Shown here: positions 152 to 57,230 of the stretch, piece by piece | Position numbering within the stretch: position 1 is the stretch's first letter | Layout of the letters: each line of letters starts with the position of its first letter | Origin: a virus | Lineage: Duplodnaviria > Heunggongvirae > Uroviricota > Caudoviricetes | IMG/VR virus record: IMGVR_UViG_3300033070_001087 | Location: 16,177 to 80,176 of that record | Length of the DNA stretch: 64,000 nucleotides | Reading direction: 5' to 3' (one strand) | Notes under the pieces: generated by a model | The model's input: the letters and a program-made list of their open reading frames with translations, nothing else | Told to the model about the DNA's origin: nothing | Database searches by the model: none | Made by a program: the position numbers and the translations under genes

Positions 152-421
152 TCATTTTAATTTATTTATTTGTAAACAACAATATTCACAATGATAATTT
201 ATTTTTTCTATTATAAATTTTATTTCATTTAAAGTTAAACAATTTAAATTATCTACATTCTGTCTTTTTAATGTTCTTAAATACATAATTAATTCATTTA
301 ATATATCAGAATCTTTTTGAGAACAAGAACTACCTGATTGTTCAGCTAATGCTAAATTATAAGCTTTATTAGCTATACAACATTGAAGTTGAAATAATAT
401 ATCAATATATTCTTGTTGCAT
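152..421 (-). CDS. hypothetical Cys-rich small protein
   Basis: 89-aa ORF at the end of the minus-strand structural block. C-terminal CEYCC cluster. No family recognised. Confidence 0.3.
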   Translation of the reverse strand: MQQEYIDILFQLQCCIANKAYNLALAEQSGSSCSQKDSDILNELIMYLRTLKRQNVDNLNCLTLNEIKFIIEKINYHCEYCCLQINKLK

Positions 422-16172: not shown

Positions 16173-16334
16173 TATAATTTATAATATTCATTTAAAGCAC
16201 TTTGTAAATTTTCTAAAATTTCTAATTTATTATTTATTTCACTTTGAGTAAATTTATCTATTCCTTGTGTCATTTTTAATCTACTTTGCAATTCATAAAT
16301 TATTATTGTTAATTCATCTAATCTACTTAACATA

Positions 16335-22956: not shown

Positions 22957-25020
22957 AACTTTAGAGAGTCTGGCTGAGATATTATCTATGATTAGCTATC
23001 CTGAAATAGTGGACATAATAGCTAATAGAATATCAAAGCTGGATTCTATATTATAATGATTAATCCACGTTAAAGAGATTAATCATATTTCCAAAGCTTG
23101 AGTTATAACAGGTGAATGTAGTCCTGATGAAAGATGCTTTTCAAATTGCGAGGGAGTGACTTATAACTCTTGTTAAGGAAATAAGATAAATCATTTGCTT
23201 GAAGATAAACAATATACTAGGCATCCCTAAAAAGCCATTGGTTGTATATAAACTGTACTAGCAGTTGTGTTCCTGAAAAGGTATTAAATATTGTAGAGGT
23301 ATAGACTAGGGAAGACACCTTGTAATTAACGTAGTTTATATTCCACTAGAATTTGGACAAGTGATTAACCCACAGTGAGATTACCTATCAATCTGTGGGT
23401 TCTCTAATTAAGCTAGTTTATGAACAGCAACACTTCTTGTAGTAAGATGCGGTAAATACCTTAAATCTGAAAATCTAGTGAAAAGAGGTGTGATTCCTCA
23501 ACTAGATGTACCTATAACAGGATACTAGCATGTTTAATACCTGAGAAAGCCGTCGCCAGAAATGGAGTAGTACGTGGTATGATTGCAGTGGTGAACAAAG
23601 CCTGTTATTTTATTTTTCTGGTATAACCAGCATTTTAGCGACAGTTATTGTATTTAAAACTGCGTTGGTGGTAACATAAGAACCATTATTATTAACCAAA
23701 CATAACTGGTTACTTTTGATTAGTAAAAATAATGTAAGTTTAATCCTATTTAAAGGCAATGAATAACATTTACTATCAATTAGCGAAAGTGGGCATTAAT
23801 ACACGGATAGCTAATCAAAAGGTTTTAATAATAATTCATATCAAATACAACTTGTTATTATAATTATAACTGAGCTGTTGGTAGAGAATTGTAAAGCATA
23901 CTTGAATTTGTGGATATATTGCTTGTAAGACAGCAGTAGATAACGATATAATCTAAGTAAAGTATGTGGTGGCAGCATAAATTAATTCCCATAGTCTACT
24001 AAGTTAATTCAGATGTAGCAACCTTGTAAGTGGAGACCTCGCTGTAGGATAATCAGTATTAATTTATGCCTCAACAATAGTAATATTGTTGTAGTAGTTG
24101 TTATAGTAAAAATAGGTTGCAGACAATTAATTGAGCTTATTTTGAAGTTAATATGTGTAAGGTTATAACAATATTAATAACAACATTGTGCAGACTGGAG
24201 TGATTACCAGTAACAAACCATACAGGATAATACATAAACTGTATGTAGTTGATAGGTAAAATAGAGAAATCTATCTACTGATAATGACAACTATCAACGA
24301 GGTTAGCGAAGTCCTTGAATTATAAATTAAAAGTTACTAAGATAGAAATATCGACTTATTCCATTAGTGTTAGTGGATTTGGTGGATAAAAGGTAGTGTC
24401 TTCCATCAAAGTAATTATCTATGACTTAATTTATAATTCATAAAATTCATACTGATTAATAATTGTTGTTGGAGCATGCCCAAATGAGGGATAACTTTTA
24501 AAAAAAGCTTAGTTCAAACAGTAACGAAATTCCTGATATAGGCGTGTAAGTCTATTGGTTATTAATCAGTAATCTGAAGTAAGAAGTTATAAGTGAAAGA
24601 TGTTGCCAAACAGTGATATACATCTATAACTTTCTTACTGAAGATAAAAATACATGGAACTATTAGCATAAGGTATTGGAGTATGCAGATTTCCAAATGT
24701 TATTAACCTTTGATAGGAGATAAGATTACCAGTTCAAATCTGGTATAGTTCCCACAACCACTTGTCGTTTAAACAAGTATGGTTAGTCCAAGACAATTCT
24801 ATTGTAAGAATTTGTGCCAAGTAAGGTAGATCCGCCACTAAAATCACAGAGAATACTGAAGAAATAATATAACTTTAAAGAATAAGAGAGGTGATACTAT
24901 AGGTCTTTAAAGAAGTACAGAACAGAGTTGTTAACAGTAGCGTATCTAACTATAAACCGAGTTCTGGAAAAAATATAACTATTAATAAATCATTTACTAA
25001 CCAAAAAAACTAAAAACACA
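22957..25020 (+). ncRNA. ~2 kb ORF-free, hairpin-dense region; candidate large structured RNA(s) / Y-RNA locus
   Basis: No ORF of 60 codons or more in any frame across about 2 kb. More G and C than the flanks. Many local stems such as CCCACAG/CTGTGGG, GAGTTATAA/TTATAACTC and GTGGA...TCCAC. Contains the tRNA-like module at 24656-24754. Strand assumed from neighbouring genes. Confidence 0.35.
24656..24754 (+). ncRNA. tRNA-like element lacking anticodon arm (Y RNA-like tRNA mimic)
   Basis: Acceptor stem GAACTAT/ATAGTTC is 7 bp, or 8 with the G-C pair from 24656. U8-A9, then D-stem GCAT/ATGC. T-arm ACCAG-TTCAAAT-CTGGT. CCA encoded directly after the acceptor. The 40 nt between the D and T arms do not form an anticodon stem. 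Confidence 0.4.
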
Positions 25021-26433
25021 ATGAGTAAAGTCAATCCGCTTGTAAAACCTGAATCAAAATTCAGTAACGAAAGAACAGCTGGTGGAGCTGGTATAAAGTC
25101 TGCTAAACAAGACAATATATCCATGCTTAGAAGAACTGTGCTAGCAAACCTATTATGGGAAAAAAATGCTTATGTAGATGGTATTACTACAGCACAGCAA
25201 ATCGCAGAATTAATACCAAAATGCAATCCTAAGGAAGTTGCAAACTTAGCTATTGAAACGAGATTAGTTCAAAAACTAAGACACACTCCATTATTTATTG
25301 CTGTTGAAATGCTTAAACATAAAGAGCATAAAAAATATGTAGCAGATGTATTAGCTAAAGTAATTACTAGAGCTGATATGTTAACAGATTTTTTAGCTAT
25401 TTATCAAGTACAAAATGGTGGTAAACTTAAACCAATAGCTGCACAGGCTAAAAAAGGTTTAGGTAATGCATTTAATAATTTTAGTGAGTACCAACTTGCT
25501 AAATATGACAGAGATGCTGCCATTAAGTTAAGAGATGTTTTATTCTTAGTACATGCTAAACCACAGCAAGGTAAAGAAGAATTATTCTCCAAAATAGCAA
25601 ACAGAGAGTTAAAAACTCCTGATACATGGGAAGTATCGCTATCTACAGGTAAAGATAAAAAACAAACCTGGACAAGATTGATTGAAGAAGGTAAAATTGG
25701 TGGCTTAGCTATGCTAAGAAACATTAGAAATATGATGGAAGCAAGTGTTGATAAGAAAGTAATAAACAGAGGTTTAGAAACTTTAAAATCACAAATGCTA
25801 TTACCATTAGATTTCTTAAAAACTGCCAGAATCAATCCTGAATTTAGTAGAGAAATAGAAGATGCTATGATAGGCTCCTATGCTAATCTACCTAGAATAC
25901 CAGGTAAAACATTATTTGTATTAGACCGTTCAGGCTCTATGAATGCACGTGTTTCTGATAAATCAGACTTTACAAGATTAGATCAAGCAATGGCTATGGC
26001 TATGTTAGCTGCTAATCAATGTGAAGATTATACACTTGTATGTACAGCTGGTGCAGACCATAATTGGACACATACAACTGAGCTAATTAAATATCCTAAA
26101 AAAGGATTTGATATAGCAGATCAAATTAAAGGATTAAAAATTGGTTATGGTGGAATTTTCACCAGACAAGCTTTAGAATGGTGTGAAAAGAATGTGGGTA
26201 AAGTGTTTGACCGTATTATTGTGTTCTCTGATTCACAAGATATGGACAGAAAAAATAAAATTCCTAAACCTTTTGGTAAATATAACTATATTTGTGATGT
26301 ATCAGCACATAAAAATGGTGTAAACTATAAAGGCGTATGGACTGCTGAAATAAGTGGACATAGTGAGCACTTTTTAACTTATATAGCTGCCTATGAAGGC
26401 TTAGAGAATTCATTCTTGGAACAGGATGTATAA
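25021..26433 (+). CDS. rsr: Ro60-like RNA-binding protein (TROVE + von Willebrand A domain)
   Basis: 470 aa. Alpha-helical N-terminal half about 300 aa long. C-terminal vWA with MIDAS motif DRSGSM. Domain order and size fit Ro60/Rsr. Flanked by tRNA-like RNAs. Confidence 0.5.
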   Translation: MSKVNPLVKPESKFSNERTAGGAGIKSAKQDNISMLRRTVLANLLWEKNAYVDGITTAQQIAELIPKCNPKEVANLAIETRLVQKLRHTPLFIAVEMLKHKEHKKYVADVLAKVITRADMLTDFLAIYQVQNGGKLKPIAAQAKKGLGNAFNNFSEYQLAKYDRDAAIKLRDVLFLVHAKPQQGKEELFSKIANRELKTPDTWEVSLSTGKDKKQTWTRLIEEGKIGGLAMLRNIRNMMEASVDKKVINRGLETLKSQMLLPLDFLKTARINPEFSREIEDAMIGSYANLPRIPGKTLFVLDRSGSMNARVSDKSDFTRLDQAMAMAMLAANQCEDYTLVCTAGADHNWTHTTELIKYPKKGFDIADQIKGLKIGYGGIFTRQALEWCEKNVGKVFDRIIVFSDSQDMDRKNKIPKPFGKYNYICDVSAHKNGVNYKGVWTAEISGHSEHFLTYIAAYEGLENSFLEQDV

Positions 26434-26518: not shown

Positions 26519-26653
26519 GTTGTCGGTAGCTCAGTGGTAGAGCAATGGTTTAAAAAAGCCTATTATGTCTATTCTTACATTATGGTATAGTGAAATAATA
26601 GTTACTTCAATTCGGCACCGTGGGTCCTGCGTTCGAATCGCAGTCGGCAACCA
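26519..26653 (+). ncRNA. tRNA-like RNA with ~67-nt insertion replacing anticodon loop (Y RNA/YrlA-like candidate)
   Basis: Acceptor (G)TTGTCGG/TCGGCAA(C). U8-A9. D-arm GCTC-AGTGGTA-GAGC. A stem ATGGT/ACCGT encloses a structured insert with CTATTAT/ATAATAG. Perfect T-arm CTGCG-TTCGAAT-CGCAG. CCA encoded at 26651-26653. Confidence 0.45.
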
Positions 26654-26908: not shown

Positions 26909-27159
26909 CAATTTTATTAACAACTAAAAATAAAAGTGATTTTAGTTGTATTTAAATAACATTTAACTCTATTGATTGCCGTGAGGCAATTGGGTTTTTC
27001 ATAGTTTTATGGTTTTTGTGGACTAAATCCAGGCCGAGAGTAATACCAGTTTGGTATAGCTAAAGCAACCTGGATTTAGACTACTAACTCGTTTGAGCGA
27101 GTATAAATAGCAGTGTTAGGCTCAAAGCGTTATATTTATAGGTCACTAAAACAACCATT

Positions 27160-33168: not shown

Positions 33169-34279
33169 TCCTTTCAAAGGTAAAATGCCTACACCATTTA
33201 TGGCAACACACTCTTATAGTTATGGAGTAGACACAAATGGTAAGAAAATAATAATGGATTCAATTCACACAGGATGTCATTCTTTTGTAAAAAGTAGAAT
33301 TTATGGAAAAGGTCACTCGTTATGTGTAGTAGTACCAATTACCTGCTGCTTTTATCAAAAAGAAGAAATTGAAGAATATATCAATCTTTTAAAACAAATA
33401 GGATTTCAAATCGAATTTAAAGGAATCTTAACAGACGCAGAAGTAGAAAAGAATCACGGCGGAGTATACAATATGGCTAATAAAGAAAATTATGTTTTCT
33501 TATTAGGCGAAGATTACAAGAATAATGTTGCTAGCGTGAGATATGCTGCATTGTGTTTGGTAAGGGCACTTTGGAATACAAACCAATTTTGGCTACCATA
33601 TAGATTTGTTGAATTCTACAGGTATTTTAAAAAGCGAAAAATTAAACCATCTTTAAGTAAAATATTAGTTCTTGCTAACCTCTGTCCACATAATCTAATT
33701 AGTGATTCATATATATTCCATAGAATAAAAGAAACAGAAAAAGGAGATTGGGAAGCGAAGAAAGATATAATTAATAAAGAATCTGGTTTGTTAGGTGGAT
33801 ATTACGGATTTATAGGACATTCAAATACTGATGTAATTTTAAATTCTGACTACGAATGTATTTATAAAAGCTTTTATATTTCTCTACTCTTAATAGGAGA
33901 TAATAAATTTAATATAATTGATTTTATTGAAAATTATAATATTAATGGTAAATTAACTGGTAACCTTTCGCAAATTAATCATTTAAACATTAATACATAT
34001 GGTAAAACACGAATGATTCGTGATGATAAAAACATATTAAATAATAAGTTAAGAGAATTATTAAAAGATAAACTGTATTACAAAGCTTTCCTTTATTTAA
34101 AAGAAATTGCAATAAGTTATAAACAATTTCCTGATTCACATTTTACAAATTTAGATCTGCAAAATATAGGTACAATGGATAATGTGTCGTCACATTACAT
34201 CCTACCAGAAGAAAAATCAGAGAAATTTATAGCAGAGTTTGTTGAGAAAACAAGTAAGGAAAAGAAAAAATCAAAATAA
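33119..34279 (+). CDS. hypothetical protein
   Basis: 386-aa ORF. Confidence 0.35.
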   Translation: MIDLKENEYLNEIPRFDPFKGKMPTPFMATHSYSYGVDTNGKKIIMDSIHTGCHSFVKSRIYGKGHSLCVVVPITCCFYQKEEIEEYINLLKQIGFQIEFKGILTDAEVEKNHGGVYNMANKENYVFLLGEDYKNNVASVRYAALCLVRALWNTNQFWLPYRFVEFYRYFKKRKIKPSLSKILVLANLCPHNLISDSYIFHRIKETEKGDWEAKKDIINKESGLLGGYYGFIGHSNTDVILNSDYECIYKSFYISLLLIGDNKFNIIDFIENYNINGKLTGNLSQINHLNINTYGKTRMIRDDKNILNNKLRELLKDKLYYKAFLYLKEIAISYKQFPDSHFTNLDLQNIGTMDNVSSHYILPEEKSEKFIAEFVEKTSKEKKKSK

Positions 34280-35151
34280 TGGAAAAAGACAAAGACAAAC
34301 TTAACAATAGCCACATAACACTTGGCACCGATCCAGAGGTATTTTTATACTCTTTGATTGATAAAATATTTTATCCTTCCTTTGGTGTTATCAAAGGTGA
34401 TAAAGAAATACCATTTCAGATACCTGATTTACCAAAAGGATTTACTACTCAAGTAGATAATGTAATGTGTGAATTTAATATTCCACCTGCATCTAATCCA
34501 CAAGAGTACTCTGATAATATTCAGAAAATCTATGATTGGTTAAAAAAAAATCTTCCAGAATCACTAGTTGTACGAGTACAACCAAGCGCAGAATTTACTA
34601 ATGCAATGTTGGCTGATGATAAGGCACATATTGTTGGTTGTTCTGAAGACTTCTCAGCTTATAGCGGAGAGAATGTTAGTGTAACAAATTTATCTGAATC
34701 AAACTGGCGTTTTGCTGGTGGTCATATCCATGTTGGATATCCAAGTCCTGCTTATTTTAGCAGTAAAACCATTATTAAATGGATGGATATTTTCTTAGGA
34801 TTACCATCTGTTATTTTGGACACAGATGAACGAAGAAAAGCTATTTATGGTACACCAGGAAGATGGCGTGATAAAGACTTTGGTCTTGAATATCGTGTTT
34901 TATCAAACTGGTGGACAGAAAGAGAAGAGTATCGTAAATGGGTATTCCGTCAGACTGAAAAAGCATATTATGCTTTTAAAGAGAATGTAGAAATTGGTGA
35001 AGACTTTGAAAGACAGGTACAAGACTGTATTGAGCAGAACAATGCAGAACAAGCACGTGTCTTGATGGCACATTTTGGTGTGGCTGATGAGTCATTTACT
35101 GAGATTTTTAACATTAAAATGAAAGAATATGCAGACCAACACGCTGAATAA
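34279..35151 (+). CDS. hypothetical protein
   Basis: 290-aa ORF. Confidence 0.35.
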   Translation: MEKDKDKLNNSHITLGTDPEVFLYSLIDKIFYPSFGVIKGDKEIPFQIPDLPKGFTTQVDNVMCEFNIPPASNPQEYSDNIQKIYDWLKKNLPESLVVRVQPSAEFTNAMLADDKAHIVGCSEDFSAYSGENVSVTNLSESNWRFAGGHIHVGYPSPAYFSSKTIIKWMDIFLGLPSVILDTDERRKAIYGTPGRWRDKDFGLEYRVLSNWWTEREEYRKWVFRQTEKAYYAFKENVEIGEDFERQVQDCIEQNNAEQARVLMAHFGVADESFTEIFNIKMKEYADQHAE

Positions 35152-35523
35152 AAAAGAAGAAGTTGCTGGTGAAACTCCAGCAGGTGGAACACAACCTAAT
35201 GTAGAAGTTCCAGTTAAAACACCAAGAATTGGTATAGTAGGACATATGTTGCCAAATGGCACATCAGTAGGAGTTAGCCTTCCTTATCTTACCTATTTTA
35301 CTAAATTTGGTAATGTTATTATTGTAAATCCAGTTGCTATTCTTGTAGAAGAGAACTTAGATTTATTAGTAATACCAGGTGGACCAGATGTATCTACTAT
35401 ACGATATCTAGGAAAAGGTGATAAACATTCCTTTTTTAATCAAAAACCTGATCAAGCAAGAGAATGGTTTGATGTTAATATGTTACCTAAGTATATTGAA
35501 AAGCGTATTCCAATTTTCGGGAT
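35129..35523 (+). CDS. peptidase C26 / class-I glutamine amidotransferase-like protein, exon 1
   Basis: VIPGGPDV motif. The ORF reads ...IPIFGI just before the expected catalytic Cys. It ends at U35523. Confidence 0.5.
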
Positions 35524-36497
35524 AAAATTACATGTCCCACTCTATAGTAATATAGATGTTAAAAACAGGGTGAACTCATGGAAAGCTGAAATGCCAATCA
35601 TGAGCCAAGCTTAGATAGAAATATCTTTGAAGGTGCAGAGACTAACAATCGAGACTAAGTTTTAAGAGTTATATCTTGAAATACGTCAGTAACATTGACA
35701 AGAGCGCCCTGATTCTTATAAAAATTTATTAATAATTGCATATTTTTTGAAAATACTTCTACTTGATCAAAAGTGGCTTGATTTTTCATCATATTTGCAA
35801 GTCTTGAAAGAACAATTATATTACCTTTAATATATCCTTTATTATTATCTATTCTATCTATTGTAGCATAGTTATAATTTTGATAATCTCCTTCTTTTGT
35901 ATTATATAAAAGAGGAAATTTAAATATTGGACATTCATTTGGTAATTGTAAATCTTGATATTCTAAATTAAACTCTAAATTTCTTCTTTTAGCAGAATAT
36001 TTTATATTTCTAATCATATATCCTTTTACTCTATCTAACTCGTTAGTATAAGTGTTTTGAAACATTTTAGGTTTTAGTCCTAATTTATTTCTAAAATAGT
36101 TTACTTGCTTTTGAGATATACCTAAAGTAGAAGCAATTTGATTATCAGTATAATCTAATTCTCTTAACTCAGAAATTCTTGATTTTAATTTTTCAAAGTA
36201 AACATCTCTATTATTTGGTAAATCATTTTTAATACGAAACTCATAGATCGTACTCATTGCTTTATTAAATATTTCAGATAATTCTTTGTCAGATTTTCCT
36301 TGATTATAAAGTTCAAGAAACTTAATTTTGTCTATCATGTAAATTTGTTTTTATTGTTGCAAATATACAAAATTAATTGTTATTTTAAGAAAAAATAAAT
36401 AATTTTTATTTAAGAATATGATATAGTCCAAACTTATACAAAATACAAGTATAAGAATTCGGAAATAAAGAGTTCCGAAGATAATAGGCCCTATTTG
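35524..36497 (+). mobile_element. group I intron (putative) in C26 peptidase gene, with antisense HNH ORF
   Basis: The 5' exon ends in U and the intron ends in G36497. Joining the exons gives GI-CRGHQ, which restores the catalytic-Cys motif. P7-like AGACUA occurs twice at about 35628-35650 and UAGUCC at about 36424. Confidence 0.5.
35655..36338 (-). CDS. HNH (HNH_3) homing endonuclease
   Basis: IDRIDNNKGYIKGNIIVLSRLAN HNH_3 motif plus N-terminal HTH modules. Located inside the intron on the opposite strand. Confidence 0.6.
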   Translation of the reverse strand: MIDKIKFLELYNQGKSDKELSEIFNKAMSTIYEFRIKNDLPNNRDVYFEKLKSRISELRELDYTDNQIASTLGISQKQVNYFRNKLGLKPKMFQNTYTNELDRVKGYMIRNIKYSAKRRNLEFNLEYQDLQLPNECPIFKFPLLYNTKEGDYQNYNYATIDRIDNNKGYIKGNIIVLSRLANMMKNQATFDQVEVFSKNMQLLINFYKNQGALVNVTDVFQDITLKT

Positions 36498-36963
36498 ATG
36501 TAGAGGCCACCAAACTATTGCAGTACACTTTGGTGCAAAGTTAATTCAACACTTATCTGGTCATGATCAAAATAAAGAAGATGAAAGAAATTACTTAATT
36601 CAATCTTTAGCATATTTACATACTGAAGTACAAGATGATTTACTTGTAGTAAGAGATATACAAGAAAGAATTGATGTAAACTCAATGCATCATCAAGCAG
36701 TTGAAACCTGCCCAGCTAATGCAACAGTTGCTGCATGGACTTGTGAAATATATTCTAATACTAAGAACAACCAAGCATGGATGAGTTCTTATAAGTATAA
36801 AGGACATTTACCAGAATTTGTTCACAATAATCGTAAATATATTATTGAAGCATTAGTATATAATAACTACCCCATCGCTTCTGTTCAATGGCATCCTGAA
36901 GAGATTCATGATGAGTTTTCAGATGGACTTATAGCGATGTTAATTGCGTGTTCCAATAGCTAA
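36498..36963 (+). CDS. peptidase C26 / GATase1-like protein, exon 2
   Basis: Frame reads (I)CRGHQTIAVHFGAK...NSMHHQAV...VQWHPE, the canonical C26 Cys-His motifs. A stop lies immediately upstream in frame. Confidence 0.55.
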
Positions 36964-38916: not shown

Positions 38917-39365
38917 AAGCAAATAAACTGATAACTGTTTTTAATGATTGGGAAAATCAAAAAGATGTAATAGGTACAGTATTGCTCATTAAGAGATTAA
39001 AGAGAGGCTTACCATTTATCTTAAAAGATACAGTAACTAAAAGAACACCTGAAAAGAAGAAGTTTCATGAAACAATATTCTTTGAATGGAGTGATGAAGA
39101 GGAATCATTAGAGACAACTAAAGTATATGGCTATGAACAATGGCTATGTAAAGTTATCAAATCTGTAAATCCATCCTATCCTATTAACACAGAAGTAAGA
39201 TTAAATATCAGGTACTTAAAAGGAGATTTTAAGGATGCAGAAATCCAAAGCAACTATAAGAACTTTGATGAAGATGAATTAGAAGAAGAAGCTTATCTTA
39301 CTCAATGGAAAATAAAAAATCTAATGGATAAGTTTATTGAAGTTAACGGAGAAGAGATTTACTAA
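38892..39365 (+). CDS. hypothetical protein
   Basis: 157-aa ORF. Confidence 0.35.
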   Translation: METIQEDLKANKLITVFNDWENQKDVIGTVLLIKRLKRGLPFILKDTVTKRTPEKKKFHETIFFEWSDEEESLETTKVYGYEQWLCKVIKSVNPSYPINTEVRLNIRYLKGDFKDAEIQSNYKNFDEDELEEEAYLTQWKIKNLMDKFIEVNGEEIY

Positions 39366-40340
39366 CATCAAATACGTAATTTATGATATTGAAACTTTAA
39401 AAGAGTGCTTTACATTTTGTTTCTTAGACTACGAAACAAAAAAAAGAAAACAATTCATAATTCACAAAACAAAAAATGAGTTTAATGAACTCATAGACTT
39501 CATTGTTAGACTAAAACAACATAATTATTATTTTGTTGGATTTAATAATCTAGCATTTGATGGACAAATACTACAATATTTATTTAAGAATAAAACATTT
39601 AGAAAAGCACCTGTAGAATTGGTATTAAAAGAATCTTATAAATTTGTACAGGATTTAATTGCCTTACAAAATAGAGACGATAAATATCAACATGTAGTTG
39701 CAGAGAAGAATTTAATATTCCCACAAATAGATTTGTTTAAACAAAAGCACTATGATGGTACAGCAAAGAGAGGAACTTCTTTAAAATGGATTGAATTCAC
39801 GATTGGTTTTGATAACATTCAAGAAATGCCAATTCATCATAGTGCTTGTGTAGATCAAGAGGATATAGATTTAATCTTATCCTATAATTGGAATGATGTG
39901 GAAGCAACCACCAAATTTTTTGAACTCATAAAGTTTGAAACTGATTTACGAATCAACTTATCAAATGAATATGATATTAATTTATTAAATGCATCTGAAC
40001 CAAGATTAGCGAAAGAAATTTTTGCAAAATTCTTATCAGAAGAATCAGGAATTAGTCCGTGGGAGTTAAAAAAGCTTAAAACAAGAAGAAATATAATTAA
40101 TGTAAATGAAATTATATTTCCTTATATTAAGTTTCAAACAGAACAACTAAATATTCTTTTAGATCAAATCAAGCAATTGAAGATTGATGGGAATAATACA
40201 AGAGATTCATTTGAAAAAGTTTTTAACTACCATGGAATAGAAACTGTAATGGCATTAGGTGGAATACATGCATGTTGTGAGCCAGGAGTTTATAAAGATA
40301 ATGAGAATCTAATTATGGAAGATATTGACGTTAAAGATGT
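39337..40340 (+). CDS. family B DNA polymerase, exon 1 (3'-5' exonuclease domain through motif A Asp)
   Basis: Exo I YDIET. The ORF ends ...DIDVKDVAS with a stop. The proposed junction restores DVTSFYPN, which is motif A DxxSLYPS. Boundary within a few nt. Confidence 0.5.
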
Positions 40341-41247
40341 AGCGTCATAACTGTGTGAATTGCTGGAAGCCTAAGTGAAAATATGGTAATCAGCAGCCAA
40401 GTTAAATCGGGTTCAGAGACTATCGAAATCCTATGCCAATAGAGAAAGTAGAGTACAGCTTTATGCTGGAAGCGCACAGAGATTCTTTAAATAATTATCC
40501 TTTAATTTTTAGGATAATAAGATATTATTTTGTATATTTGTAATATGAAATTAAATATACAACATAAAGGAAAATCAGGAATTTATTGTATTAGAAATAT
40601 AATAAATAATAAAGTTTACATTGGAAAATCTATAAATATTTATTATAGACTAAAAAATCATATTGGAGCTTTAAATGGAAAAATTAGAAAACATGAAAAT
40701 GAATACTTAATTAATTCATGGTATAAATATGGTAAAGAAAACTTTGAATATTTTATATTAGAATATTTAGATAAAGAAGAAAGTATTTTATCAGAAAGAG
40801 AATTGTATTGGATTAATTACTATGATTCAATTAATCCTTCTAAAGGATATAATCTAAGATTAGATGTAAGTTCTAAGTGTATTGTCTCTACTTCAACTAG
40901 AGAAAAACTTAAAATAGCAACTAGTAAGAGATTTGAAAAATTAGAAGAAAGAGAAAAAGTTTCTAAGCATTTTAAAAATTTTTGGAAAAAAAATCCAGAT
41001 ATTTTAAGAGAAATGTCTAATAAAGTTTCGAAAGCAAAATGTAAATATAAAATTCTTCAATATACAAAAGAAATGGTTCTTATTAAAGAATATAATTCTG
41101 TTAAACAAATTATTGAAGAAAATCCCGATTACAAATGGCAAAATATATATTCTGTATGTAATGGTTATAAACCAACTATGTATGGATATATATGGAGAAA
41201 AGAATCTAAGATATAGTCCGATCCTATAGGAAACTGTAGAAAAATTG
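40341..41247 (+). mobile_element. group I intron (putative) in polB with GIY-YIG ORF
   Basis: Exon 1 can end in U40340 and the intron ends in G41247. GC-richer structured 5' segment with cAGAGACUAucg near 40412 and UAGUCC at 41215. Contains a same-strand GIY-YIG ORF. Confidence 0.45.
40530..41216 (+). CDS. GIY-YIG homing endonuclease (intron-encoded)
   Basis: SGIYCIRN...KVYIGKS...R...E...YNLR GIY-YIG core. Confidence 0.65.
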   Translation: MYICNMKLNIQHKGKSGIYCIRNIINNKVYIGKSINIYYRLKNHIGALNGKIRKHENEYLINSWYKYGKENFEYFILEYLDKEESILSERELYWINYYDSINPSKGYNLRLDVSSKCIVSTSTREKLKIATSKRFEKLEEREKVSKHFKNFWKKNPDILREMSNKVSKAKCKYKILQYTKEMVLIKEYNSVKQIIEENPDYKWQNIYSVCNGYKPTMYGYIWRKESKI

Positions 41248-42175
41248 TACATCATTTTATCCAAATTTAGCAATTCAAAACGATTTAAAACCTGCTCATT
41301 TAGGAGATTCTTTTACGAAAATATATAACAATATTTTTCAAGAAAGAAAAGGTATTCCAAAAACAGATCCAAGAAATTATGTATATAAAATTATTCTTAA
41401 TAGTACCTATGGATTAAGTAATGAAGAGAATTCTTACTTATATGATCCATTGTTTACTATGTCAATTACTATTAATGGTCAATTGAGTATCTTAATGTTA
41501 GTAGAAATGCTAACATTAGCTATTCCAGAAATTAAAATTTATCAAGAGAATACTGATGGTGTAACTATTGGATATGCTCCTGATAAGAAGCAGGTAGTAC
41601 ATGATATATGTAGAGAATGGGAAAAAATCACTAAATTAGAATTAGAGAATAACTTTTATAAACAAATGGTTATTATGGATGTTAACAATTATATTGCTGT
41701 TGATATTAAAGGAAAAATTAAAAGAAAAGGATTGTTTGAATATCAATTAGATTATCACAAAAACCATTCTTTTTTAATTGTAGCTAAAGCATTAGAAGCA
41801 TATTTTGTTAATGGTATAGACTATAAACAGTTTATCAAAAACCATAATAATTATTCAGATTTCTTTGGAGCTGTAAAAGGTAAAAGTGATTTTGAAATAA
41901 ATCTTTATTTTATTAAAAATAGAGAATTTATAAAAGAAAAACAACAAAAAGTATGCAGATACTATATATCAAATAAAGGTGGTAAACTTATTAAAGATTA
42001 TCATGATGGTAGACAAGTATCTGTAGAAGCTTCAAGTGTATGTAATATTATTAATGATATTAAAGGAATAGAATCTTTTGATATTAATTATAACTATTAC
42101 ATTAACGAAGTGCGAAAAATAATTAGCTTGATTGAGAAACCAAAAGTTATCCAAACAAGCTTAATATTTAATTAG
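41248..42175 (+). CDS. family B DNA polymerase, exon 2 (palm/thumb)
   Basis: The in-frame read upstream of the listed ORF gives SFYPNLAIQ...KIILNSTYGLS, which is motif B KxxxNSxYG. Motif C is YQENTDGV. A frame stop lies just upstream. Confidence 0.5.
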
Positions 42176-52246: not shown

Positions 52247-52939
52247 ATGATAAAAGACAGAAAAATTTTCGTAGTAGGACCTTCAAGTCATTATGCAAAT
52301 TGGATGGGTGGAACATTAGTAAAAACTATTGAAGAAGCTGACTTAGTTGTATTTACTGGAGGAGCTGATGTCTTCCCAGGAATCTATAAAGAAGAAGATA
52401 TTCATCCAAGAACATCTTATTTTCTTGAAAGAGATGACTTTGAAATGACTGCTTACGAAAAAGCTTTAAAACTAGGTAAAAAAATGATTGGTATCTGCCG
52501 TGGCCACCAATTATTAAGTGCGTTAAATGGTGCAAAATTAATTCAGGATCAACCAAATCCTGGAATGCATTTTATGAAAACTCACTATGGAGATGAAATC
52601 TTTATAAACTCTATGCACCATCAAGCGGTGTTTCCTTTTAATCTACCTGAAGATAATTATTTTATTTTAGGTTGGACAGAAGGTCTAAGCTCACACCACG
52701 AAAATGGTAAAAAAGAAGAGATGAATCCACCGGTTGAAGTTGAAATGATATATTTTCCAAAAACTAATTGTTTAGGAATTCAATGTCATCCAGAAATGAT
52801 GCATACAATAAATACAACTAATAATCAAAAAGCTATGAAATTCTTTAAGAATCAACTTCATAGATTTATGATAGATTGTCTATTTGTTGATAAGCAAGCA
52901 AACGAAAAACTAAAAAAAAAGAAGTTGGTAATTAATTAA
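52247..52939 (+). CDS. peptidase C26 / class-I glutamine amidotransferase-like (gamma-glutamyl hydrolase type)
   Basis: GICRGHQ nucleophile elbow, NSMHHQAV, and GIQCHPE His-Glu. Paralog of the intron-containing gene at 35129/36498. Confidence 0.6.
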   Translation: MIKDRKIFVVGPSSHYANWMGGTLVKTIEEADLVVFTGGADVFPGIYKEEDIHPRTSYFLERDDFEMTAYEKALKLGKKMIGICRGHQLLSALNGAKLIQDQPNPGMHFMKTHYGDEIFINSMHHQAVFPFNLPEDNYFILGWTEGLSSHHENGKKEEMNPPVEVEMIYFPKTNCLGIQCHPEMMHTINTTNNQKAMKFFKNQLHRFMIDCLFVDKQANEKLKKKKLVIN

Positions 52940-52952
52940 TTAAAATAAAATA

Positions 52953-55076
52953 ATGAACGAGCTTAGCTTAATAAACAGCATACTTCTATTTCAAATAGTA
53001 GGATATGCTATACTACGTATATTTTTCAAACCAGATATAGGTAGAAGATTGTATTGTGGTGTATTCGCGTTCAATGGTCCAACTAATTTATCAAAAGCTT
53101 TATGTCATCTTGTACTAAACAATATTAAAATATTGGGTATGTACAATGATGAACGAGGTGGTGATAATGCAGGTATAGTAATCAATAATGAAGTACTAAG
53201 AACTATTGGAACTGAATATAAATTCAAGACTCTACTGGAGAGAAATCATATAGATGTGTTAGATCCTGCTATTTCAACTATCGTTATTGGACATTCAAGA
53301 AAAGGCTCTGTAGGTGGGAAAGGTCATGAGAATGCTCATCCTTTTGAAATCTATGAAGACAAAAAGAATCCAAGTCCTGATTGGTACATGACTGGCGTTC
53401 ATAACGGAACTATAGAAAATTGGCAAGATTTACTTAAAAATCATGTATTAGACGAAAAAGAGTTTAAGAATGATAGTAAAACTATGTTAAAAATTATAGC
53501 TCGCCAGAGAAAACTTAAAAAAGTTAAAAAGTATAATGTACTTGAAAAATACAAAGGTAATGGAGTATTTATCTGGTATTTCCGTGATGAACCTGATACC
53601 ATGTATGTGTTTAAAGGAGCACATAAAAAGTACAAAACTGCAACAAAAGCTGACGAAGAAAGACCATTATTTTTCTATGAATGTCCAATCACAGAAGGTA
53701 TTTATTTTAGTTCTATCAAAGATTCTTTAATTGCTATTAGTGTAGATAGAGAATTAGTGAAAGATTTAGCAACAAATACTGTTTTCAAGTTCCGTCAAGG
53801 TAAACTTGTTGTAAAAGATTCGATAACAATAGAAAGAGAAAATATCTATGAATTTGAGTCAGCTAATTCATCAGTTATGTATGGTTACGGTGAAGAATAT
53901 GATGGTCATTGGGAAGGATGTGGTTTTGAACCAGCGATTCGACCAGGTATTCAAAAGCAAATTGGCTTCAAAGACTATACAGCACAAAGTCAAGAAGCAA
54001 TGGCTAAACAAGCTCTAAAAGAAAGAGCTGATCATTTGGTTAATAAAACTTTACCCAGTAATAGCTCAAATGTTTGTCCTATACCAATCTCTTCGTCTAC
54101 TTCTCCCACAAAAAGAGAAGGAAAAACCATCATTTTGGGAACAGATGATGTTCCCTTAAAAAACATTGCTAATTATAAAGATAAAATTTATAGAGAGCAT
54201 GGTTTATATAAGTTTGGTGGTGAATTACTCAATGGTGAGTATATTATTAATATGAAAACGTATGAAGTTCATTCTTCTTCTAAGAAAAATTTACTTGAAC
54301 AAGATCATATTTTTGAATCTCGCTTCTTCTATGAAGGATATATGTTAAAAAACAAAATAGCTTTAATTGATTTACAAGAATTGGATAAAGACAATTCAAA
54401 TTGGAAAGCTGATAAAGCTCAATATATCATGAGTAAATACTGCTCTTATCCTGTACCTACTACAGATGGTAAAATGTACTATTTAAACCTTAACAAAGCT
54501 CAAGGTTACTTCGAAGGAATTCCTTATAGTGAAGGTAAAGTTTATGATTACAAGGATGGCAAACTTATTGAAGTAAGAAAGATTGTGGAAACAACAAATC
54601 AGGAGAGCTCCATTCCACCACAGGAGATTGAATACGGACCTATTATAGGTCCAAAAACAAAGATAATAAATTTACATTGTCCAAACTATGATAGAGATAT
54701 TACAGATCCAGATGGTATAACATCTACACCTCCTAAGTTGACTGAAGAAGAAATCGCAGATCAACTTAAAAAAAATCAGGAAGAAGATAGCAGACAAGAA
54801 GAACTTTCTGTTATTGATTCTGCTGAACAAGAAATTCTTGAGCAATGGCTTAATTTAAAAGAAAAGATAGAAGAACAAATGTATAATATGGATCCATTTA
54901 TTAAAGATGGTTCGTTAAAAAAGTTGGATTTTTTATCTGGTAGTCTTTTCGATTGGGGTATTGATTGTATAGAAGGTGGTGTAGTAGGTACACCAAAAAA
55001 TTTATCTCCTTATTATAAGTTAGACGATAAAGGGAAATTAGCATACAGCAACATTTCTAAAATGAGATTTTTTTAG
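52953..55076 (+). CDS. class-II (Ntn) glutamine amidotransferase domain protein with long C-terminal extension
   Basis: Internal LYCGVFAFNGPTN matches the GATase-II N-terminal nucleophile CG(I/V)xG. It follows a ~34-aa hydrophobic leader. About 450 aa of extra C-terminal sequence. Confidence 0.45.
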   Translation: MNELSLINSILLFQIVGYAILRIFFKPDIGRRLYCGVFAFNGPTNLSKALCHLVLNNIKILGMYNDERGGDNAGIVINNEVLRTIGTEYKFKTLLERNHIDVLDPAISTIVIGHSRKGSVGGKGHENAHPFEIYEDKKNPSPDWYMTGVHNGTIENWQDLLKNHVLDEKEFKNDSKTMLKIIARQRKLKKVKKYNVLEKYKGNGVFIWYFRDEPDTMYVFKGAHKKYKTATKADEERPLFFYECPITEGIYFSSIKDSLIAISVDRELVKDLATNTVFKFRQGKLVVKDSITIERENIYEFESANSSVMYGYGEEYDGHWEGCGFEPAIRPGIQKQIGFKDYTAQSQEAMAKQALKERADHLVNKTLPSNSSNVCPIPISSSTSPTKREGKTIILGTDDVPLKNIANYKDKIYREHGLYKFGGELLNGEYIINMKTYEVHSSSKKNLLEQDHIFESRFFYEGYMLKNKIALIDLQELDKDNSNWKADKAQYIMSKYCSYPVPTTDGKMYYLNLNKAQGYFEGIPYSEGKVYDYKDGKLIEVRKIVETTNQESSIPPQEIEYGPIIGPKTKIINLHCPNYDRDITDPDGITSTPPKLTEEEIADQLKKNQEEDSRQEELSVIDSAEQEILEQWLNLKEKIEEQMYNMDPFIKDGSLKKLDFLSGSLFDWGIDCIEGGVVGTPKNLSPYYKLDDKGKLAYSNISKMRFF

Positions 55077-57230
55077 ATGAACAAAAAGAAAAACAAGGAC
55101 TATGCATTAACAGTTTCTGGAAATGAAGTTCTAAAAACAAATTGCATATTAATCAATAAAGAGTATTATGAGAAGAATGTTGACTGTTTCCTTATTAACT
55201 ATAAAGGAAATGAAAGATGGGTTCCATTTGATAACTCTTATTGTTTTAATTTTGTAAATGGACAATACGAAAAGAGAAAACTCGTAGAAGAAAAAGGACT
55301 TACTAAGTTCTTAATTGGGTTCGGTGGTAAACAACTAGAAAAACTTGTGTTTGGCTATGATGTTGCCAATTTTGCGATAAATACCAAAGTGTTTTCTCAC
55401 TACGGAAATAAAAGTCTTGATTATCAGACATATCAAACAGAAATTAAAAGATCTGAAGAGCGAATTGTAAAATATGAAGAGAGACTTCAACCTCAAATAT
55501 TATTTAACGATAATTATGGAAGTTATATTAATATTATATGTAAGTTATATTACTACAGAAACTTTATCAATAAAGAACTTCCATTTCCAATAGAGGATAT
55601 TACTCTAAAAGATTTTGTTAAAATTATTAGAGAAGTTGAAAATTATACTCTAAGAGATAATGATATCAGAAATGATTTTCAAGAATTCTATAATGACTAT
55701 TGCTGTTATGTTCATACTGGTTATGATCCTGTTAGTCCAGAAGATGATCCAGATAATACTCTACAAAAAATCACTTATGAAATTGTACAACAAACTCCAG
55801 TTTTAGCAAAAATATTTGATTTTGTTATATCTTATTTTGAAATTACATCTTCTTTAAAGAATGAAATTTCAGCTGAAAAAGCAAAATTACAAAAGTATAA
55901 TGCAAAACTTAAAGAAATTAAAGATGCTAATTTCTTTAGTGAAATTTGTAGAACAAAAGAAGATGCAATAAATCTTGGTTTTATTGAATCATTCTCAAAT
56001 GACTCTTATTATTTAAAAAGAAATCTCAGTACTGGTGAGATAGCAGCTTTATCCAAAATTCCATCGCATAATCAAGATGGTTCTTATAGTAAAAACATAA
56101 GAATTAATTATAATGCAAATCAAGGAACAGATGTTTTCACAAGGATATTAGAAAGCTACTATCTTACGAGAGAAGAGAATACTAAATTAGAAAGAAAGAG
56201 TTATAATATTGCAAGGTTATTAAATGGTTTAACTTATGGTATTGAATTTGAAACTTGTTTAGGTAGAATTAGAGAACCTGATTTATATAGACATGGAATT
56301 ATTCCTTTAAGAGATGGTTCTGTAACTGGTTTTGAATATACAACTATACCTTATGGTTATTCTAATGTGAATTTAAATGAAACAAGCACTCAAGCATTAG
56401 CTAAAGACTTGACTAATTTAAAAGAACTTTGTAATGAATTAACCAAGCGTTGTCAAATAAACTCACGATGTTCTATGCATATACATATTGGAGGAGTAAG
56501 AAAAGATAAACTTTATTTACTTGCTGTATATATGTTATGTTATATGATACAAGATGAGATGTTTGAGATGTTTCCAAAGTTTAAGGAAGATTCTCCTAAG
56601 TATTTAGGTACACAAAAGAATTACTGTAAAAAATTAGACCATTTGGATTTATTCGATAACTGTATATTTGACAAAAGTTCTGTTTTAAAAGAAAATTATT
56701 GTGATAATATCAATGAGTATTTTAACAGAATTTTTAAGTTCTTATCTGATGGACAAGATATAGGTTCTAAATTTAATCGTAAATTATTAAGACACCCAAT
56801 AGATCAAAAATGGAATAGACATGGTAGATATCATTGGGTTAATTTAGTAAATTCCGTATTTAGTAATTCAAGAACTATTGAGTTTCGATTACATACAGCA
56901 ACCTTAAACTTTACTAAAACTTTAAATTGGATGTTAATCTGTTCAGCAATTGTAAAATTTGCTGATACTCACACTAAAGAAATTGTGTCAGGTAAAATAT
57001 CTAAAATTAGTTTAGATGAGTTGATAGGTGGTTATTGTAATGGATTCAGAGATAAGAAAAAAACAAACGAAAACGGACTATTCGTTCATAAGTATCTAAA
57101 TGAGTATATTAATACTCGTAAGGTATACTTTGCAAATAAGACTGTTCAAAAAGACTTTGTTTGTGAAGTAGAGTTAGAACAAGATAAGAATTTTGTATTT
57201 AACTACATGGGCGTAACTAGCCTGATTTAA
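55077..57230 (+). CDS. amidoligase (GCS2/carboxylate-amine ligase-like) large protein
   Basis: TYGIEFETCLGRI resembles the GxExE start of the GCS2/amidoligase catalytic domain. 717 aa. Cluster context with GATase-II, C26, ATP-grasp and GGCT. Confidence 0.4.
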   Translation: MNKKKNKDYALTVSGNEVLKTNCILINKEYYEKNVDCFLINYKGNERWVPFDNSYCFNFVNGQYEKRKLVEEKGLTKFLIGFGGKQLEKLVFGYDVANFAINTKVFSHYGNKSLDYQTYQTEIKRSEERIVKYEERLQPQILFNDNYGSYINIICKLYYYRNFINKELPFPIEDITLKDFVKIIREVENYTLRDNDIRNDFQEFYNDYCCYVHTGYDPVSPEDDPDNTLQKITYEIVQQTPVLAKIFDFVISYFEITSSLKNEISAEKAKLQKYNAKLKEIKDANFFSEICRTKEDAINLGFIESFSNDSYYLKRNLSTGEIAALSKIPSHNQDGSYSKNIRINYNANQGTDVFTRILESYYLTREENTKLERKSYNIARLLNGLTYGIEFETCLGRIREPDLYRHGIIPLRDGSVTGFEYTTIPYGYSNVNLNETSTQALAKDLTNLKELCNELTKRCQINSRCSMHIHIGGVRKDKLYLLAVYMLCYMIQDEMFEMFPKFKEDSPKYLGTQKNYCKKLDHLDLFDNCIFDKSSVLKENYCDNINEYFNRIFKFLSDGQDIGSKFNRKLLRHPIDQKWNRHGRYHWVNLVNSVFSNSRTIEFRLHTATLNFTKTLNWMLICSAIVKFADTHTKEIVSGKISKISLDELIGGYCNGFRDKKKTNENGLFVHKYLNEYINTRKVYFANKTVQKDFVCEVELEQDKNFVFNYMGVTSLI

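Follow-up and report, generated by a model that had tools for sequence, protein, structure and literature searches.

A putative mobile group I intron with an antisense endonuclease gene in the GATase gene of a distant crAss-like phage

The 64,000-nucleotide (nt) stretch of DNA analysed here (the window), which corresponds to positions 16,177 to 80,176 of the IMG/VR virus record IMGVR_UViG_3300033070_001087, encodes a Peptidase_C26/GATase protein in two fragments, and the 974 nt between these fragments harbor an open reading frame (ORF) for a 227-amino-acid (aa) protein on the opposite strand. The locus raises two questions: whether the intervening DNA is removed by splicing, and what a gene reading in the antisense direction is doing within it. 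The answer that we favor, with a probability of roughly 0.8, is that a mobile group I intron occupies the GATase gene of a distant crAss-like phage and bears an antisense endonuclease cassette in its P8 element. The gene parts concerned are the following.

35129..35523, plus strand: exon 1, Peptidase_C26/GATase (paralog A), ending CCA AUU UUC GGG AU
35524..36497, plus strand: predicted group I intron of IA-like type, 974 nt long, having an additional P7.1/P7.1a situated between P7 and P3' (RF00028 partial match, nhmmer core halves, covariation)
36498..36963, plus strand: exon 2, GATase, beginning A↓UGU AGA GGC CAC CAA (I C R G H Q) and containing the HPE motif
52247..52939, plus strand: GATase paralog B, intron-less, with a Peptidase_C26 match; its orthologs in other phages carry the intron-endonuclease unit

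The interrupted GATase gene and its intron

A first-pass annotation of this DNA had described an upstream ORF ending in ...KRIPIFGI and a downstream frame reading CRGHQTIAVHFGAK...NSMHHQAV...VQWHPE, and both are present: the ORF at 35129-35614 (+) ends its exon part in ...KRIPIFGI and then continues for 30 more codons inside the insert, and the frame from position 36499 encodes CRGHQTIAVHFGAK...NSMHHQAV...VQWHPEE. Joining U35523 to A36498, as had been proposed, yields an 861-nt in-frame ORF whose 286-aa product (...IPIFGI↓CRGHQ, the arrow marking the junction) matches the Pfam families Peptidase_C26 (PF07722; 1.8e-26) and GATase (PF00117; 3.2e-16), and only after splicing do the Cys nucleophile elbow (GICRGHQ) and the His-Pro-Glu motif (VQWHPEE) reside in one polypeptide. 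The split had been placed exactly at the catalytic Cys codon; the site is indeed adjacent to it, although the junction itself lies inside the Ile codon (AU↓A), 1 nt before the Cys codon UGU at 36499-36501. A protein search with the spliced product identified orthologs (P0001, with 78% identity, P0002, P0004, P0007, and P0009) that are uninterrupted across IPIFGICRGHQ, the first of which is found in the same synteny, downstream of a COOH-NH2 ligase gene. A further locus, L003, represents an intron-less GATase allele with the sequence CCAATTTTTGGAATTTGTCGTGGTCATCAA, and the intact, intron-less paralog that had been noted at 52247-52939 was confirmed. An IMG/VR locus search with the single spliced protein returned no relatives.

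The intron is predicted to comprise the following elements.

35519..35538 (+): P1 with the internal guide sequence, GGGAU (35519-35523)/GUCCC (35534-35538), with U35523·G35534 at the splice site
35528-35533 with 36498-36503 (+): P10, UUACAU with exon 2 AUGUAG
35541..35556 (+): P2 hairpin UCUAUA-GUAA-UAUAGA, in site-A introns and not in site-B introns (sites defined below)
35566-35572 (+): P3 5' strand, CAGGGUG
35576-81 / 35598-603 (+): P4, UCAUGG/UCAUGA; P5 also lies within 35566..35634
35604-06 / 35632-34 (+): P6, GCC/GGU, with P6a AGAUA-GAAA-UAUCU
35638..35644 (+): P7 5' strand, G-A(bulge)-GACUA, pairing with UAGUCC at 36424-36429 in the pseudoknot that forms the guanosine-binding helix
35646-49 / 35694-97 (+; span 35646..35697): P7.1, CAAU/AUUG, enclosing P7.1a
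35653-55 / 35685-87 (+): P7.1a hairpin, GAC/GUC; the region has the endonuclease stop codon (CTA 35655-57 on the plus strand)
35705..35711 (+): P3 3' strand, CGCCCUG, opposite the Gln-Gly-Ala codons of the endonuclease tail
35712..36417 (+): P8, 5' AUUCUUA 35712-18 and 3' UAAGAAU 36411-17, with a loop of ~700 nt, the endonuclease cassette
36424-29 (+): P7 3' strand
36433-39 / 36449-55 (+): P9, CUUAUAC/GUAUAAG
36458-79 (+): P9.1, UUCGGAA-AUAAAGAG-UUCCGAA
36497 (+): terminal G of the intron

The presence of P7.1/P7.1a between P7 and P3' is what we take to be an IA-type trait in the Michel-Westhof classification. With respect to the earlier description of the intron, its length of 974 nt, the U at the end of the 5' exon, the terminal G36497 and UAGUCC at 36424-36429 were all borne out. 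Two copies of AGACUA do exist, at 35639-35644 and 35652-35657 rather than at about 35630 and 35645, and only the first of them is P7. The second, GAGACUAA, was considered as an alternative P7 and rejected, as relatives read GAGUCUUA at this position, forming P7.1a.

Comparative analysis indicates that 35524-36497 is a genuine group I intron with the splice sites originally assigned, on the combined grounds of P1/P10 pairing, the terminal G, core covariation, an ORF-less copy, and intron-less orthologs. In seven of seven distinct GATase introns, the predicted splicing produces an in-frame G-x-C-R-G-x-Q motif; all seven have U·G at the 5' splice site as well as the terminal G, and six have a P10 of 3-6 base pairs (bp). 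P10 covaries, reading UUACAU/AUGUAG in the window, UUGCAU/AUGCAG in the related locus L034, and GGCAG/CUGCC in a second one, L002, and the exon 2 differences of these two loci in the P10 region are synonymous, the guide sequence following the exon. P1 behaves similarly, with GCCCUCU in place of GUCCUCU where the Gly codon is GGG instead of GGA.

The core was assessed in an alignment of 16 introns, the structure of which (P3, P4, P6, P6a, the P7 pseudoknot, P7.1, and P9.1) was set by hand, since RNAalifold is unable to draw the P3/P7 pseudoknot and for that reason wrongly joined the 5' exon to the 3' strand of P7. Paired core cells amounted to 97.0%, compared with 79.1% in column shuffles, and changes on both sides were observed in 28 of the 38 core pairs; none of 500 shuffles reached the observed values, and pairing fell to 31-45% when the 3' partners were slid as a control. 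Five pairs of P7 are invariant in the 16 introns, and the outer pair, across the bulged base, is G-C in seven and A-U in nine of them. P7.1 covaries (CAAU/AUUG, CAAC/GUUG, CAGC/GCUG, and UAAC/GUUA), as does P8 across the seven GATase introns. For the four closest introns, RNAalifold independently found P2, P3, P4, P5, P6, P7.1, P7.1a, P8, P9, and P9.1, with covariation in P8 and P9. The foldable core anticipated by the first-pass annotation is in this way specified from P1 to P9, and the Rfam group I model search which it had suggested aligned P1-P2-P3-P4-P5-P6-P7-P3' of the window in a local search with RF00028 (29.1 bits, E 3.2e-5).

Locus L002, whose GATase is 92% identical, has this intron at the identical position in a version of only 359 nt, from which the endonuclease gene has been deleted while a remnant of its 3' end was kept. 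Further GATase introns with the ORF were reached via relatives of the endonuclease (L034-L041, L042/43, L044-46, L047/48, L049, L051, and L052). A motif search with P9.1 found this ribozyme family in 30 IMG/VR contigs, which measure 16-140 kb and for the most part 50-130 kb; several of their introns are followed by a dUTPase-like exon 2 (GYRGE). An exact 25-mer of the P4-P6 core had no IMG/VR match.

A second group I intron of this ribozyme family was observed in the window itself, at 40351-41449, where it splits a DNA polymerase gene (exons 39337-40350 and 41450-42175; nhmmer E 2.5e-8 at 40349-40422); positions 357-426 of the polymerase profile are uncovered by the two ORFs, and the intron boundaries are therefore approximate. 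It carries a sense-strand GIY-YIG homing endonuclease (ORF 40545-41216 [+], PHROG 5e-23), and another core of the family, at 207-332 (-) of L052, an 83-kb contig, adjoins a GIY-YIG gene. The ribozyme family is host to several endonuclease types. In addition, L036 (~400-760) and L037 (~2030-2380), on the minus strand of these loci, contain a second group I intron in the same GATase gene, at the catalytic His motif (VQYHP↓E), so that in some L034-type contigs both catalytic motifs of one small GATase gene are intron targets.

An antisense reading frame within P8

The following two features are assigned to the P8 loop.

35655..36338, minus strand: putative homing endonuclease gene, 227 aa, with two N-terminal helix-turn-helix units and a His-less beta-beta-alpha-Me-like nuclease domain (~residues 107-211)
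36360..36371, minus strand: promoter-like box TTTGTATATTTG, preceding the endonuclease ATG by 21 nt

The ORF is present on the antisense strand as first annotated, and no other minus-strand ORF of 110 aa or more is credible within a long plus-strand block of ~43 kb (19980-63078), the one further candidate listed, 25404-25835, being located inside the plus-strand ORF 25021-26433. It is bracketed by the P8 stem (35712-18/36411-17) plus an extension, whereas family introns without this ORF have a P8 hairpin of 4-6 bp. The placement is conserved: in all 8 of the other endonuclease lineages examined (41-95% identity, contigs up to 144 kb), the gene lies antisense between two Peptidase_C26 fragments, the lineages with the gene antisense in P8 being, besides the window, P0121, P0134, P0145, P0155, P0161, P0170, and P0182. 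Nhmmer profiles of both core halves match every related locus in one layout, in which the 5' half overlaps the reading frame at its 3' end by ~55-60 nt on the opposite strand and the 3' half lies upstream of the ORF start. The expectation that the ORF would occupy a peripheral loop accordingly holds for P8 and fails at the 3' end of the gene, which overlaps the ribozyme core on the opposite strand.

The last ~19 codons of the ORF (~57 nt) are the reverse complement of P7.1a, P7.1, and P3', and the next ~6 codons lie opposite the P8 5' strand. The stop codon corresponds to the CUA of the conserved CGAGACUAAG in P7.1a, and the final codons, read on the plus strand as GUC-AGU-AAC-AUU-GAC-AAG-AGC-GCC-CUG, form the P7.1a 3' strand, an AGUAAY bulge, P7.1', and P3'. 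The resulting protein tail, YKNQGALGxITDVFP ("QGALG-ITD"), is strongly conserved in intron-borne members and absent from short free-standing relatives; this core-imprinted tail occurs in 76 of the best 120 protein clusters, and the tail-bearing clusters (at least 76) are found in crAss-like and related phages, of 83-144 kb where contigs are long. By sequence comparison, the overlap stretch is under constraint both as RNA structure and as protein tail. Since the same RNA sequence is conserved in family introns without this ORF, it is the RNA that constrains the protein tail and not the reverse.

With regard to expression, the 12-mer TTTGTATATTTG occurs exactly twice in the window, at 36360-36371 (-) and, upstream of the GIY-YIG gene, at 40529-40540 (+), both copies thus preceding intron-borne endonuclease genes of unrelated families. 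The shorter GTATATT is found upstream of 7 of 8 antisense endonuclease genes in related loci and of the GIY-YIG gene of the window, and it is missing from the 60 nt preceding each of the 57 other window ORFs of at least 110 aa. The stretch TATATTTG fits TAnnTTTG, which we take to be the Bacteroides -7 consensus. On account of this placement, TTTGTATATTTG may be a promoter specific to endonuclease cassettes, located inside the P8 loop and dedicated to the gene within it. The antisense of P9.1 (36458-36479, -) together with a T-rich tract resembles a terminator just upstream of the promoter-like box and could insulate the cassette from minus-strand read-through; a second terminator-like site is situated at 35164-35182 (-), ~470 nt past the stop codon of the endonuclease gene.

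The intron and its host gene have discordant histories. The introns of the window and L034 share 94% identity along their 974 nt, while the exons show ~65% nucleotide and 60% protein identity; conversely, the exons of the window and L002 are ~90% identical, yet L002 is without the ORF. Intron-less alleles exist, and two paralogs house the unit: site-A introns (GGGAU↓A UGY) reside in orthologs of paralog A, and site-B introns (UGY AGA GGN U↓), 10 nt downstream, in orthologs of paralog B (window 52247-52939). An undamaged ORF is present in 17 P0121-type contigs and throughout the other lineages; with a pS of 0.202, a pN of 0.022, and a pN/pS of 0.11 between the window and L034, it is under purifying selection. 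Such sequence relationships represent the pattern expected of a homing element aimed at the conserved GICRGHQ-coding DNA and occasionally transposing between paralogs.

The encoded protein, the proposed homing cycle, and its rivals

The 227-aa protein has weak helix-turn-helix matches in Pfam and matches the PHROGs 'endonuclease' (3e-26), 'HNH endonuclease' (2e-11), and 'endonuclease VII' (2e-10). Invariant in the family alignment are C136, D161, R162, G168, Y169, N173, S178, A181, N182, and K185, most of which fall within the motif D161-R162-I-D164...G168-Y169...N173...N182..K185 on a beta-beta-alpha element. The best fold match of the AlphaFold model (pLDDT 90.7) is PacI, in a comparison made at fold level, and G168-Y169 is positioned between the two strands of the model. 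On this basis, the protein is predicted to be a His-less beta-beta-alpha-Me-like nuclease with PacI as its closest fold. A distant relative, P0230, is encoded by a free-standing, co-oriented gene beside ribonucleotide reductase, a neighborhood typical of homing endonuclease genes.

The intron anatomy with its covariation, the conserved antisense placement, the purifying selection, and the discordance of intron and exons with loss of the endonuclease in a relative are established here, and we infer splicing, nuclease activity and its target, a minus-strand promoter and its transcription, and a reason for the orientation, as set out below. The GATase gene would be transcribed on the plus strand, and the intron RNA would fold into a group I ribozyme which splices U35523 to A36498, thereby restoring the Ile-Cys-Arg-Gly-His-Gln codons of the nucleophile elbow. 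The P8 hairpin is presumed to have grown by ~700 nt through a complete cassette in reverse orientation, namely the promoter-like box followed by the gene for a 227-aa site-specific DNA endonuclease, in which the two helix-turn-helix units would serve recognition and the His-less beta-beta-alpha-Me-type domain cutting. Produced from its own minus-strand transcript, the endonuclease would never be translated from the pre-mRNA, and ribosomes would be kept off the ribozyme, at the cost of a transcript complementary to the ribozyme. During co-infection, the enzyme would cut intron-less GATase alleles near the GICRGHQ-coding DNA, and repair off the intron-bearing genome would copy the intron and its gene together.

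Several observations weigh against this proposal. At Rfam gathering thresholds, no intron is reported in the window, L001, L002, or L003, and the local RF00028 scores of the window (29.1 bits) and the ORF-less L002 (28.5 bits; both with E ~2-3e-5) stand against a gathering score of 50; the low score is attributed to penalties for the long P7.1 and P8 inserts, the model aligning only P1/P3 to P7 to P3'. The P8 duplex of the window is itself weak (-7.9 kcal/mol, matched by 43 of 300 shuffles), and JGI metagenome contigs did not contain a 26-mer spanning the spliced junction. A sigma-70 promoter scan performed at chance, a model which may not suit a phage that presumably infects Bacteroidota, and a minus-strand mRNA, being complementary to the intron RNA, could block its folding. 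As for the protein, Pfam gave no HNH or Endonuclease_7 match (for HNH, none at E<0.1), no homolog has a nuclease Pfam domain, NCBIfam yielded nothing meaningful, and PDB sequence searches with the protein and the family profile produced helix-turn-helix matches only. There is no conserved His across 46 sequences, Arg162 standing where HNH has its catalytic His, and only one Cys is invariant in the family. The HNH_3 label (PF13392) applied in the first-pass annotation was consequently dropped, there being neither a profile match nor a conserved His, and membership of the DHHRN/Endo VII-motif group was rejected for want of the same residue. Nuclease catalysis by this protein is thus a prediction, to which its His-less nature and the lack of Pfam, NCBIfam, and PDB nuclease matches are opposed.

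It is on the protein that the strongest rival bears. Under this explanation, to which we assign a low probability, the intron is real and the antisense ORF encodes a DNA-binding protein (a regulator or decoy-type factor), the intron having spread via another endonuclease or recombination. The lack of the conserved His, with Arg at the general-base position, and the missing Pfam HNH or Endonuclease_7 match would fit such a role, as would an N-terminal half consisting mostly of two helix-turn-helix units and the annotation of some relatives as 'Srd anti-sigma factor' or 'decoy of host sigma70'; moreover, His-Me finger groups without the His and without an equivalent Tyr are inactive (PMC5714182). 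A regulator would, however, be hard to reconcile with an ORF that is tied tightly and exclusively to a single target gene in 8 of 8 lineages, with the conservation of intron and ORF far beyond that of the host exons, or with the invariant D-R-x-D...G-Y...N...N..K pattern on a beta-beta-alpha element. The best fold match, PacI, is an active His-less enzyme that uses a loop tyrosine, and the free-standing relative beside ribonucleotide reductase occupies a classic endonuclease-gene site.

It is very unlikely that the minus-strand ORF is a decaying remnant in an immobile intron passed on by vertical inheritance only. L002, which lost the ORF and kept the intron, does display the degeneration phase expected of a homing cycle, but the ORF is intact in the 17 P0121-type contigs and all other lineages, the pN/pS is 0.11, there are 76 distinct tail-bearing clusters, and an intron identity of 94% stands beside an exon identity of ~65%. 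Finally, the alternative raised in the first-pass annotation itself, that a selfish endonuclease-gene insertion split the GATase without splicing, leaving two separate polypeptides or a dead gene compensated by paralog B, is hardly credible even though gene callers annotate two fragments and a second intact paralog is present, as it is contradicted by a complete group I core with compensatory changes, by P1 and P10 that adapt to each exon context (P10 tracking even synonymous exon 2 codons), by the precise retention of an ORF-less intron, by an exon 2 without a start codon at CRGHQ, and by the conservation of both exons, in frame, in seven phages.

The mobile intron with an antisense endonuclease cassette is therefore retained as the preferred explanation. 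A bolder extension of it seems doubtful to us: that the reverse orientation is an adaptive and widespread answer to the conflict between ribosome and ribozyme; that the endonuclease arises solely from its own promoter on the minus strand; that its mRNA, complementary to ~700 nt of the intron including P3', P7.1, and P8, acts as an antisense switch blocking splicing and GATase, so that homing and host-gene expression exclude each other as phases of infection; and that the protein founds an uncharacterised His-less, Tyr-dependent homing endonuclease family.

Phage context and comparison with known systems

The window is AT-rich (29.7% G+C), and its minus strand encodes the major head protein, the portal, and the large terminase, the last of which is ~33% identical to terminases of crAss-like phages of Flavobacterium and Bacteroides. 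A megablast search of the first 25 kb of the window against GenBank phages returned zero relatives. Based on the terminase likeness and the lack of a close GenBank relative, the sequence is classed as that of a distant crAss-like (Crassvirales-like) phage. The split GATase lies within a conserved phage module of phiEco32-type COOH-NH2 ligase, two GATase paralogs, amidoligase, and GGACT-like genes (window 34279-35151 and 52953-57230; also in L042, L049, and L052), which suggests a gamma-glutamyl or peptide-modification pathway. Elsewhere in the window, a Pistol ribozyme (RF02679) was detected at 27087-27147 (+) with 57.9 bits, against a gathering score of 34.5, in a tRNA-rich intergenic region at 26.5-27.2 kb. 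A 129-nt tRNA match in Rfam at 26521-26649 (+; 32.1 bits), without an ARAGORN call, could be either a degenerate tRNA or a tRNA gene interrupted by an insertion or intron, and ARAGORN assigned an 84-nt tRNA-Asn with the unusual anticodon ATT at 24670-24753 (+), which is absent from the Rfam list at gathering threshold.

Mobile group I introns in phages are textbook material, and in the characterised bacterial and phage cases known to us, the endonuclease gene is always on the intron's strand, its expression being throttled lest ribosomes unfold the ribozyme. PacI binds two zinc ions. Unlike PacI (PDB 3m7k; His-Me finger group 20), to which it is only 15% identical and without a sequence-level match, the protein of the window belongs to a family with one invariant Cys. 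The F-CphI/DHHRN enzymes, homing endonucleases of phages, resemble it in falling within the beta-beta-alpha-Me superfamily but not within classical HNH, in keeping with the 'endonuclease VII' PHROG match at 2e-10, and differ in their defining D-H-H-R-N residues (PMC6083498), which are absent from the window protein. As a compact (~100-aa) His-less putative nuclease domain combined with modular helix-turn-helix recognition, it may offer a scaffold for site-specific nucleases.

The self-splicing td intron of phage T4, with its endonuclease I-TevI, is like the intron of the window in being a group I intron that interrupts an enzyme gene of a phage where a conserved catalytic-site sequence is encoded, in bearing in a peripheral loop an endonuclease gene whose 3' end reaches the structured core (PMC2988022), and in displaying invasion with later loss of the ORF. 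When I-TevI is translated within the T4 intron, splicing is impaired, and several controls delay this translation (PMC2988022). I-TevI is encoded on the sense strand, in P6a, is a GIY-YIG enzyme, and is restrained at translation by RNA hairpins and a late promoter, whereas the window features an antisense gene, in P8, with a His-less beta-beta-alpha-Me-like domain and a core overlap on the opposite strand.

Within the same ribozyme family, the dUTPase intron of phage cr1_1 (MT774380) has a core that is 79% identical over ~95 nt and shares P7.1 and P9.1, including the AUAAAGAG loop; it differs in having a sense-strand HNH ORF in the P1 loop (annotated in GenBank as 'putative intron-encoded HNH endonuclease'), a 4-bp P8, and a dUTPase host gene. 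Group I introns are frequent in some crAss-like phages (PMC7886860) and are also known in gut jumbo phages. The locus also offers an annotation rule for crAss-like phages, according to which a minus-strand 'hypothetical' gene between two GATase fragments indicates an intron missed by Rfam.

Opposite-strand endonuclease genes in phage or bacterial group I introns are not mentioned in a bacterial group I intron review, a 2025 intron/endonuclease database paper, a T4 review (intron genes), or a Bastillevirinae intron study, nor were they encountered in targeted literature searches, a limited literature that is no proof of novelty; only eukaryotic nuclear rDNA cases were found. In the nuclear rDNA introns Didymium Dir.S956-2 and Diderma Dsq.L2066/I-DsqI, a His-Cys box endonuclease gene lies, as the gene does in the window, opposite the intron and host strand; it has an internal promoter and a transcript of its own, and for such antisense genes of myxomycetes and fungi, Pol I/Pol II compartmentation is invoked (PMC9548176). 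These introns differ from that of the window in enzyme family, host gene, and ribozyme subgroup (IE there), and in belonging to eukaryotic rRNA genes with Pol I/Pol II, separation of nucleolus and nucleoplasm, polyadenylation, and spliceosomal introns, whereas a phage is without compartments. What is new here is, on the sequence evidence, best filed as a phage group I intron with a stably antisense endonuclease gene in P8 which overprints the ribozyme core and encodes an uncharacterised His-less putative nuclease family. It provides a natural test case of a selfish gene and a ribozyme sharing nucleotides on opposite strands, and a prokaryotic parallel to the endonuclease genes that lie antisense in nuclear rDNA introns, though one in which no compartments separate the two transcripts.

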